Virus record (IMG/VR): IMGVR_UViG_2663763220_000004
Length of the DNA: 4,362 nt
DNA from: a virus
Lineage: Duplodnaviria > Heunggongvirae > Uroviricota > Caudoviricetes
Strand: one strand, 5' to 3'
Shown here: positions 2,397-2,690 of the stretch, piece after piece
Numbering within the stretch: the first letter of the stretch is position 1
Layout: each line of letters begins with the position of its first letter
The notes under the pieces: generated by a model
Seen by the model: only the letters and a program-made list of their open reading frames with translations
Told to the model about the DNA's origin: nothing
Database searches by the model: none
Program-made: the position numbers and the translations under genes

Positions 2397-2471
2397 TGGA
2401 GCGGGCAGCGGGAATCGAACCCGCATCATCAGCTTGGAAGGCTGAGGTAATAGCCATTATACGATGCCCGC
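2397..2471 (-). tRNA. tRNA-Gly, anticodon UCC (T4-like tRNA-Gly architecture)
   Basis: Reverse complement GCGGGCATCGTATAATGGCTATTACCTCAGCCTTCCAAGCTGATGATGCGGGTTCGATTCCCGCTGCCCGCTCCA: 7-bp acceptor stem, anticodon stem TCAGC/GCTGA with loop CTTCCAA, T-loop TTCGATT, encoded CCA. Confidence 0.85.
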
Positions 2472-2474
2472 ATA

Positions 2475-2550
2475 TGGTGCCGACTACCGGAATCGAACTG
2501 GTGACCTACTGATTACAAGTCAGTTGCTCTACCTACTGAGCCAAGTCGGC
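2475..2550 (-). tRNA. tRNA-Thr, anticodon UGU (by my reading of the anticodon loop CTTGTAA)
   Basis: Reverse complement GCCGACTTGGCTCAGTAGGTAGAGCAACTGACTTGTAATCAGTAGGTCACCAGTTCGATTCCGGTAGTCGGCACCA: acceptor GCCGACT/AGTCGGC, anticodon stem ACTGA/TCAGT, encoded CCA. The T-stem has one A-C mismatch. Confidence 0.75.
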
Positions 2551-2552
2551 AC

Positions 2553-2629
2553 TGGACCGCCACCGGGGACTCGAACCTCGCACACTCAACTTAAAGGGTT
2601 GACGCTCTTTCCTGATGAGCTAGTGGCGG
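2553..2629 (-). tRNA. tRNA of uncertain identity: anticodon loop CCTTTAA, so anticodon would be UUU (Lys) but with C at position 33; alternatively a degenerate Arg-type tRNA
   Basis: Reverse complement CCGCCACTAGCTCATCAGGAAAGAGCGTCAACCCTTTAAGTTGAGTGTGCGAGGTTCGAGTCCCCGGTGGCGGTCCA: acceptor CCGCCAC/GTGGCGG, D-stem GCTC/GAGC, anticodon stem TCAAC/GTTGA, T-loop TTCGAGT, encoded CCA. Unusual features are a 5' C, C33, a 9-nt D-loop and a T-stem mismatch. Confidence 0.55.
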
Positions 2630-2630
2630 T

Positions 2631-2690
2631 TGGTGGCCCTTGCTGGATTTGAACCAGCGACCTGGCGATTATGAGTCGCTCGCTCTCACC
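2631..2690 (-). tRNA. ileZ: tRNA-Ile2-like (gene anticodon CAT, ileX/ileZ type), 5' end truncated by the N-run
   Basis: Reverse complement ...GGTGAGAGCGAGCGACTCATAATCGCCAGGTCGCTGGTTCAAATCCAGCAAGGGCCACCA closely matches E. coli ileX as I recall it (...GCAGGCGACTCATAATCGCTTGGTCGCTGGTTCAAGTCCAGCAGGGGCCACCA). Anticodon loop CTCATAA. The acceptor 5' strand and D-arm fall in the Ns. Confidence 0.75.

Follow-up and report, generated by a model that had tools for sequence, protein, structure and literature searches.

The four tRNA genes at positions 2397-2690 (minus strand) of the viral record IMGVR_UViG_2663763220_000004 (Caudoviricetes), whose whole stretch of 4,362 nucleotides (nt) is called the window here, probably form an array of a lambdoid prophage of Escherichia coli and Shigella that derives from the ileZ-argN-argO array of phage 933W and adds scarce decoders to the host's supply. 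It is proposed that ileZ has been retained, that the gene in the argN slot has been kept with an anticodon loop of sequence CCUUUAA, and that argO has been replaced by copies of the host genes thrU and glyT. The products tRNA-Ile2, tRNA-Thr(UGU) and tRNA-Gly(UCC) would reinforce the host in reading AUA, ACA/ACG and GGA/GGG, for which its decoders are scarce. We give this reading as a whole a probability of about 0.7. The array itself is ordinary, common and already annotated; what has not been described before is its mosaic make-up (a phage ileZ, what reads as a re-anticodoned phage Arg scaffold, a host-like thrU and a host-identical glyT), the oddities of its 'tRNA-Lys', and a hypervariable family of related genes.

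The genes are arranged head to tail and each encodes its CCA end. Three of them are called on the minus strand by both ARAGORN and the Rfam model RF00005, with the Thr, Gly and 'Lys' genes all above the gathering threshold of 29 bits; the fourth is called in the window by no tool because a run of N removes its 5' end. The spacers measure 3 nt (2472-2474), 2 nt (2551-2552) and 1 nt (2630). An earlier sequence-only reading of the window had described four packed tRNAs with these spacers, which is borne out by ARAGORN, by Rfam and by the intact fourth gene of relatives, and its anticodons CAU, UGU and UCC are correct. The remaining anticodon it had called ambiguous; the gene is odd indeed, but its position in a 7-nt loop gives the anticodon as UUU. 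It also saw no clear Arg anticodon, in agreement with ARAGORN and RefSeq/PGAP, neither of which calls one. Each gene was compared with 933W, E. coli K-12, a T4-like phage and a Yersinia phage.

The tRNA-Ile2(CAU) gene is visible in its 3' 60 nt (2631-2690, minus strand), the 5' 16 nt being lost in the N run, and is recognised by its identity to ileZ and by the tRNA-Ile annotation of its relatives in RefSeq. The 10-N run (2691-2700) stands for 19 real bases, a leader of 3 nt and the first 16 nt of the tRNA, which alignment with an intact relative (the S931B copy) gives as CTCGGCCCTTTAGCTCAGT. The gene has the anticodon loop CUCAUAA, is identical to 933W ileZ across 60/60 visible nt and is 89% identical to K-12 ileX. 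Intact copies in relatives, whose 3' 60 nt are the window's visible bases, score 72.5 bits with RF00005. RefSeq labels the gene tRNA-Ile and phage depositors label it tRNA-Met; it is closer to ileX than to tRNA-Met. A CAU anticodon modified with lysidine reads AUA, and the determinants recognised by TilS are C4-G69 and C5-G68, of which G68 and G69 are visible in the window while C4 and C5 are present in the intact copies of relatives. The CAU gene is of the tRNA-Ile2 type, for which lysidine at position 34 and charging with isoleucine are predicted.

Both distal genes are copies of host genes and not phage-specific tRNAs. The tRNA-Thr(UGU) gene (2475-2550, minus strand; called by ARAGORN; Rfam 72.5 bits, E 4.4e-15) equals K-12 thrU except for A9G (99% identity), and has the anticodon arm of the host tRNA, ACUGA-CUUGUAA-UCAGU, unchanged. 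Three viral contigs and S. flexneri L172 share the A9G substitution (window position 2542), and most arrays carry A9. The tRNA-Gly(UCC) gene (2397-2471, minus strand; called by ARAGORN; Rfam 64.9 bits, E 5.5e-13), which RefSeq annotates as tRNA-Gly in homologous arrays, is 100% identical to glyT of E. coli K-12. Both thrU and glyT are single-copy in K-12, as has been reported for thrU (PMC12445682). A search for host-capture junctions found that the phage copies share nothing with the flanks of thrU or glyT outside the mature tRNA, and therefore show no trace of a simple tyrU deletion; acquisition by gene conversion or by an old capture is possible.

The second gene (2553-2629, minus strand; 77 nt) is called tRNA-Lys(UUU) by ARAGORN and scores 44.4 bits with Rfam (E 2.4e-07). 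Its anticodon arm is UCAAC-CCUUUAA-GUUGA, with UUU at positions 34-36 of the 7-nt loop, and it carries C33, U73, a C1-G72 pair and an A51.C63 mismatch. Its identity is 81% with 933W argN and stays below 62% with host lysT. With argN it has in common the unusual acceptor stem CCGCCAY/RTGGCGG, both the D and the T arm, U73 and the CCA end; where pairs 7-66, 27-43 and 30-40 differ between the two genes, the changes are compensatory, which suggests that the fold has been maintained. Among the hallmarks of a tRNA-Lys the gene thus has UUU at 34-36 and lacks U33, which is near-universal in tRNAs, as well as A73 and kinship with tRNA-Lys. The UUU anticodon is the main determinant for LysRS, and the product, if active, would be expected to accept lysine and to read AAA/AAG. 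The nearest relatives carry the same stem with the loops CUUCUAA (Arg-UCU) or CUCCUAA (Arg-CCU). With RF00005 argN scores 54.8 bits and the Arg-UCU relative 52.1, against 44-45 bits for genes of the window type; a hand count gives eight differences between the second gene and its nearest Arg-UCU relative, one of them in a stem, where it makes the A.C pair. In the E. coli genome L236 an intact Arg-UCU gene occupies the second-gene slot and is followed by 'GT' and a Thr gene, as in the window. The gene is best read as a descendant of an Arg-UCU tRNA by U33C and C35U. Annotation pipelines label it plain 'tRNA-Lys', which hides both its origin and its oddities.

The array of 933W (AF125520), in which ileZ-argN-argO lies between Q and stx2, occupies the same place on the map, after Q, the late promoter pR' and a terminator and before the late genes. 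Its promoter pT, taken like the other 933W features from the GenBank annotation, has a homologue in the window, its ileZ is identical over the 60 visible nt, and its argN shares the scaffold of the second gene (81%). It differs in the argN loop, which is CUUCGAA (UCG) there and CCUUUAA (UUU, C33) here, in having argO (UCU) where the window has the thrU-like and glyT-like genes, in spacers of 9 and 13 nt against 1-3 nt, and in the toxin genes that follow there, none of which is present in the window. With ileZ first, behind the pT homologue and downstream of Q, and with no Arg anticodon in genes two and three, the array is a variant of the 933W type rather than a member of it. The sequence-only reading had set the array apart from ileZ-argN-argO, but the two are related: ileZ itself stands first, and the second gene is a homologue of the argN family whose loop has changed. 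The converse idea of an ordinary ileZ-argN-argO array plus a Gly tRNA, with anticodons mis-assigned, can call on the same identity of gene 1 and on the argN scaffold of gene 2, but is as good as ruled out by the UUU and UGU anticodons which ARAGORN and RefSeq both report; nor is gene 3 argO, to which it is 68% identical as against 99% to thrU. An intermediate array, ileZ-[CCUUUAA gene]-argO, is found in the Shiga toxin-producing E. coli genome L234 and links the window array directly to the classical one. In L234 the CCUUUAA gene alone has a D-stem deletion, and ileZ and argO on either side of it are intact. The open-access literature searched yielded no paper naming ileZ/argN or describing an Ile-Lys-Thr-Gly lambdoid array.

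Of 5,426 complete E. coli genomes, 603 (~11%) contain 80% or more of the 312-nt block, mostly at an identity of 99% or higher, and RefSeq annotates homologous arrays as Ile, Lys, Thr, Gly. The block also occurs in the isolated or induced phages PhiR47_1, vB_EcoM-606R7 and vB_EcoS-689R5. The closest match to the tRNA piece is the chromosome of Shigella flexneri SFBU1023, which is 100% identical over 1876-2690 and has a different flank. Many copies in prophages show decay: L235 has several hits in all four genes, and L236 retains mosaic remnants. Damaged array genes are left unannotated by RefSeq.

Codon counts from the annotated genes of two carriers of the array, PhiR47_1 and the S51 prophage, were compared with those of a 50-kb sample of K-12 core genes. 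Per 1000 codons AUA rises from 2.6 in the host to 6.4 in PhiR47_1 and 9.5 in the S51 prophage, ACA from 4.0 to 10.2 and 14.1, and GGA from 5.5 to 13.4 and 16.6 (p<1e-5 for each of the three codons), so that the three are 2.4-3.7 times more frequent in the array-carrying phages than in host core genes. The sequence-only reading had suggested a supply of rare codons for late genes; the enrichment of AUA, ACA and GGA supports the supply, but the excess is clearly larger in early genes of the S51 prophage and about equal in early and late genes of PhiR47_1. Nor does the suggestion extend to a fourth codon, since AAA is the commonest Lys codon, which leaves the 'Lys' tRNA unexplained: AAA stands at 30.7 per 1000 in the host, 37.1 in PhiR47_1 and 42.0 in the S51 prophage, only 1.2-1.4 times more, and its share among Lys codons is not raised in the phages. 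Codon supply is a good explanation for three of the tRNAs and no explanation for the 'Lys' one. The most enriched codons in phages carrying the array are the rare Arg codons AGA, AGG and CGA (3-7 times), although the two Arg tRNAs of the classical set are gone from it. The virulent T4-type cluster (Gln, Leu, Gly, Pro, Ser, Thr, Ile, Arg) resembles the array in its tight packing with spacers of a few nt and in U34 or CAU anticodons for the A-ending codons GGA, ACA and AUA, and its Gly, Thr and Ile tRNAs are ~80-84% identical to those of the window; it differs in consisting of phage-specific sequences and not host-identical copies, and in having no Lys-UUU-like member on an Arg scaffold. A separate idea, that Gly-UCC and Lys-UUU decode the slippery G GGA AAG of the lambda tail chaperone and so bear on frameshifting, was dropped; PhiR47_1 has no GGGAAAG in its G/T region, and in the S51 prophage an A-run takes its place.

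Several observations weigh against a derivative of ileZ-argN-argO that is kept for codon supply. The codon excess is not specific to late genes. An array without Arg decoders, in phages where Arg codons are enriched, fits poorly with pure codon supply. The Thr and Gly genes duplicate host genes, and any benefit from them rests on dosage only. Selection for the array is not universal, as many of its prophage copies (L235, L236) are in decay. Expression, processing, charging and modification of the array are predicted, and the exact linkage of its surroundings rests on relatives, as the window is probably a scaffold.

The second gene belongs by its scaffold (CCGCCAY...RTGGCGG-N-CCA) with 222 loci across Enterobacterales, which were collected from viral contigs and from one genome per species by the 5' end and T loop of the scaffold, a pattern in which 22 positions are fixed. 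Of 110 unique sequences, 106 have a fully paired acceptor stem (7/7), 106 a full D stem (4/4) and 91 a full T stem (5/5), and 108 carry CCA. Anticodon loops are anywhere between 3 and 12 nt long; of the 104 sequences with a parsable anticodon arm, which between them hold 68 distinct loops, only 45 have a loop of 7 nt, and non-canonical forms include C33, A33 or G33. There are 31 pairs of sequences with an identical body and a different loop, often changed at several loop positions, and 20 pairs with the same loop and one body position different. In lambdoid arrays the scaffold always stands in the slot after ileZ, as canonical Arg-UCG where the array ends in argO and as the window type or a short-loop form where it ends in Thr-Gly. 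The window allele has the 9-nt D loop, 5-nt variable loop and 7-nt anticodon loop of the canonical Arg forms. A stand-alone member with a 7-bp stem and the loop CCAGGAU is 100% identical over 82 nt, between diverged flanks, among Escherichia species that include E. coli, E. albertii and E. whittamii. Of the 5,426 E. coli genomes 5,177 have it in the core chromosome; in K-12 it is found at 345,334-345,415, inside the small open reading frame (ORF) xtpA and the start of yahM, and is unannotated as RNA. Complements or copies of the members' own loops within 2 kb on either side were not enriched, occurring at 36 and 31 loci, against ~46 expected from permuted loops that were not matched for loop length. 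Recombination could homogenise the family bodies. The open-access literature searched gave no description of the family and nothing that links xtpA/yahM to a tRNA-like RNA. That the second gene is an allele of an undescribed Enterobacterales family of tRNA-like genes, carried by prophages and by one core locus beside yahM in Escherichia, with an intact body and a mostly non-canonical, fast-changing loop, is an unlikely reading.

Three other explanations have been weighed for the second gene. It may be a relic, a former Arg-UCU tRNA disabled by U33C and C35U which has been carried along only because it lies between useful genes in a block that spread recently; this is a real possibility, though one we hold at clearly less than even odds. 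The near-universal U33 has been lost, an extra mismatch (A51.C63) has appeared, and the model score falls from the 52-55 bits of the Arg-UCU relative and argN to 44-45 bits. The intact Arg-UCU gene in the same slot of L236 and the L234 copy with a deleted D stem between intact neighbours fit this course of events, and the 99% identity of the block among genomes makes its conservation uninformative. In a comparison of 120 copies each of the CCUUUAA and argN types, collected by anticodon arm alone, ~31% of the CCUUUAA copies are damaged elsewhere (for example by U8C or a D-stem deletion), but argN copies are damaged at the similar rate of ~22% and the comparison does not discriminate. Decay is also at odds with the differences from the Arg-UCU relative, only one of the eight being in a stem, with the persistence of intact copies in inducible phages, and with a position 33 that never reverts and an anticodon that is constant in all copies seen. 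A decoding role may also be missing altogether. The gene would then specify a tRNA-like RNA whose conserved body presents a fast-changing loop to a partner, as a nuclease decoy or inhibitor or as a regulator, which is distinctly improbable. The intact bodies with loops of 3-12 nt among the 110 unique members, the 31 loop-only pairs set against 20 body-only pairs, the perfect conservation of one member over 82 nt across Escherichia between diverged flanks, and the suggestion by the AriB authors that viral tRNAs may be competitive inhibitors (PMC12409363) all speak for it. The window allele, however, falls among the canonical Arg forms, outside the short-loop subclade; the search of the surroundings turned up no partner sequence; the 22 fixed positions of the search pattern inflate the apparent conservation of the body; and an appearance of variation confined to the loop could also come from gene conversion that exchanges bodies between prophages.

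The remaining explanation, which we regard as rather unlikely, is that 'Lys-UUU', possibly together with Thr-UGU, would replace host tRNAs cut by the defence nucleases that lambdoid phages encounter in E. coli, P2 Old, PARIS AriB, PrrC and RloC, and that the phage tRNA would escape because its anticodon arm lacks the features these nucleases recognise. To block lambda, P2 Old attacks host tRNA-Thr(UGU) first, with Lys(UUU), Asn(GUU) and Val(UAC) cleaved at a slower pace, and it needs paired CNG motifs in the anticodon stem (PMC12445682). AriB cuts Lys(UUU) and Thr(UGU) between positions 40 and 41 of U36AAUCA41, and U39A abolishes cleavage (PMC12409363), while the scissile bond of PrrC is 33p34, 3' of U33 (PMC2610378). 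Experiments have shown rescue from both PrrC and AriB by phage tRNA-Lys (PMC11555353; PMC12445682). UUU and UGU are the anticodons of the prime AriB and Old targets; the second gene has U36AAGUU41 at the AriB site, a stem (UCAAC/GUUGA) without the CNG pair and C33 at the PrrC scissile bond; and AAA is not rare, so codon supply gives a Lys tRNA no reason. An altered nuclease site relative to the host tRNA is thus present in the 'Lys' gene and absent from the Thr gene, whose arm is the host's, AriB site and both CNG motifs included. The 'resistant' stem is common to the Arg-UCU and Arg-CCU relatives and hence predates the Lys anticodon, C33, U73 and A51.C63 may lower decoding and charging, and the published AriB variant is U39A, other than the G39, U40 and U41 of the second gene. 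Phage 21 (OL657228; 2273-2428 of L129) has an Asn/Thr(UGU) tRNA pair in the identical slot between Q and the S21 holin, with a holin of the same family, and its own tRNA-Thr(UGU) rescues from Old, whereas host tRNA-ThrU does so little or not at all (PMC12445682). The phage 21 Thr tRNA owes its resistance to a diverged, shortened anticodon stem, GUCGC/GCGAA (PMC12445682), where the window Thr has the host arm, and phage 21 is without an Ile, Gly or argN-type gene. Asn and Thr(UGU), the tRNAs of phage 21, are together with Lys(UUU) the tRNAs targeted by P2 Old and PARIS AriB. The AriB-resistant tRNA-Lys of phage T5 also combines UUU with changed positions 39-41 (U36AAACC41 in T5, U36AAGUU41 in the window, U36AAUCA41 in the host); it is a true Lys tRNA of experimentally demonstrated function, while the window gene has an Arg-type body with C33 and U73.

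Returning to the array as a derivative of ileZ-argN-argO, its proposed expression draws on its anatomy and on what is known of such arrays. A sigma-70-type promoter-like site, TTGCAA-17-TATTAT (2707-2735, minus strand), was found by a promoter scan and by alignment with 933W as the homologue of pT. It ends ~9 nt ahead of the Ile tRNA in intact relatives, and its hexamers are conserved across three diverged contexts, in the third of which both the spacer and the upstream region have diverged. A second promoter-like site, TTGCAA-17-TATATT (2879-2907, minus strand), lies at the 3' end of Q and is by its position in 933W and phage 21 a candidate for the late promoter pR'. Between Q and the tRNAs a terminator scan picked out a GC-rich hairpin followed by a T run, CCCGC-CCACAA-GCGGG-TTTTTT (2799-2828, minus strand), which is a candidate terminator in tR'-type position; in 933W and phage 21 terminators are annotated at the corresponding position. 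Immediately 3' of the Gly tRNA lies a hairpin with a perfect 11-bp stem (2345-2390, minus strand). Its fold of -28.5 kcal/mol over 111 nt has a z-score of only -1.7 and is no better than 17 of 200 shuffles, and the hairpin is a possible, weakly supported processing or termination element. The array would be transcribed from its own pT-like promoter, probably in the lysogen too, and during lytic growth also by Q-antiterminated read-through from pR'. We infer that the multi-tRNA precursor is cut by RNase P at each 5' end and that 3' exonucleases trim the trailers of 1-3 nt, since CCA is encoded.

All genes of the window lie on the minus strand, in the order DUF968/HNH protein, RusA, Q, tRNAs, phage-21-type holin, 209-aa ORF, lysozyme and Rz. 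The late antiterminator Q (2896-3585, minus strand; 229 aa) matches Pfam PF06323 (E 3.7e-91) and PHROG 304. The first late gene downstream of the array encodes a phage-21-type class II holin of 71 aa (1889-2104, minus strand; Pfam PF04971, E 1.4e-35). The 209-aa ORF between holin and lysozyme (1055-1684, minus strand) is without a Pfam match, its sole match being PHROG 1085 of unknown function; relatives have a YdfR-family gene at this spot, and the ORF may be a moron. Two runs of exactly 10 N interrupt the window, one at 1866-1875 and the other at 2691-2700. Part of the holin is present a second time at 1682-1865, in a copy only ~87.5-91% identical to the complete holin region past the gap (1889-2104). 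The window is probably a scaffold of three contigs, because of the two 10-N runs and of the holin that is partly duplicated across the first of them, and the 815-nt piece with the tRNAs and the holin is probably a repeat contig. The scaffolded contigs possibly come from two different prophages. In complete genomes the gene order of the window runs uninterrupted.

Phage tRNAs have long been explained by codon supply, and recent experiments have established that some of them outlast tRNA-cutting defences. In this array, carried by a prophage that is very common in E. coli/Shigella, candidates of both kinds lie next to each other: three decoders of scarce codons and a second gene that reads as Lys-UUU, the favourite target of PrrC, RloC, PARIS and P2 Old. 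One 77-nt gene, a U33 revertant of it and the Arg-UCU relative would make a simple test system against three cloned nucleases. Should the wider family prove to be what it appears, its fast-changing loops would fit diversifying selection in a conflict with anticodon-arm nucleases, in which the RNAs could be substitutes that resist cleavage, decoys or inhibitors, or else a different role outside decoding, and the family would, if expressed, be a new class of tRNA-like RNA.

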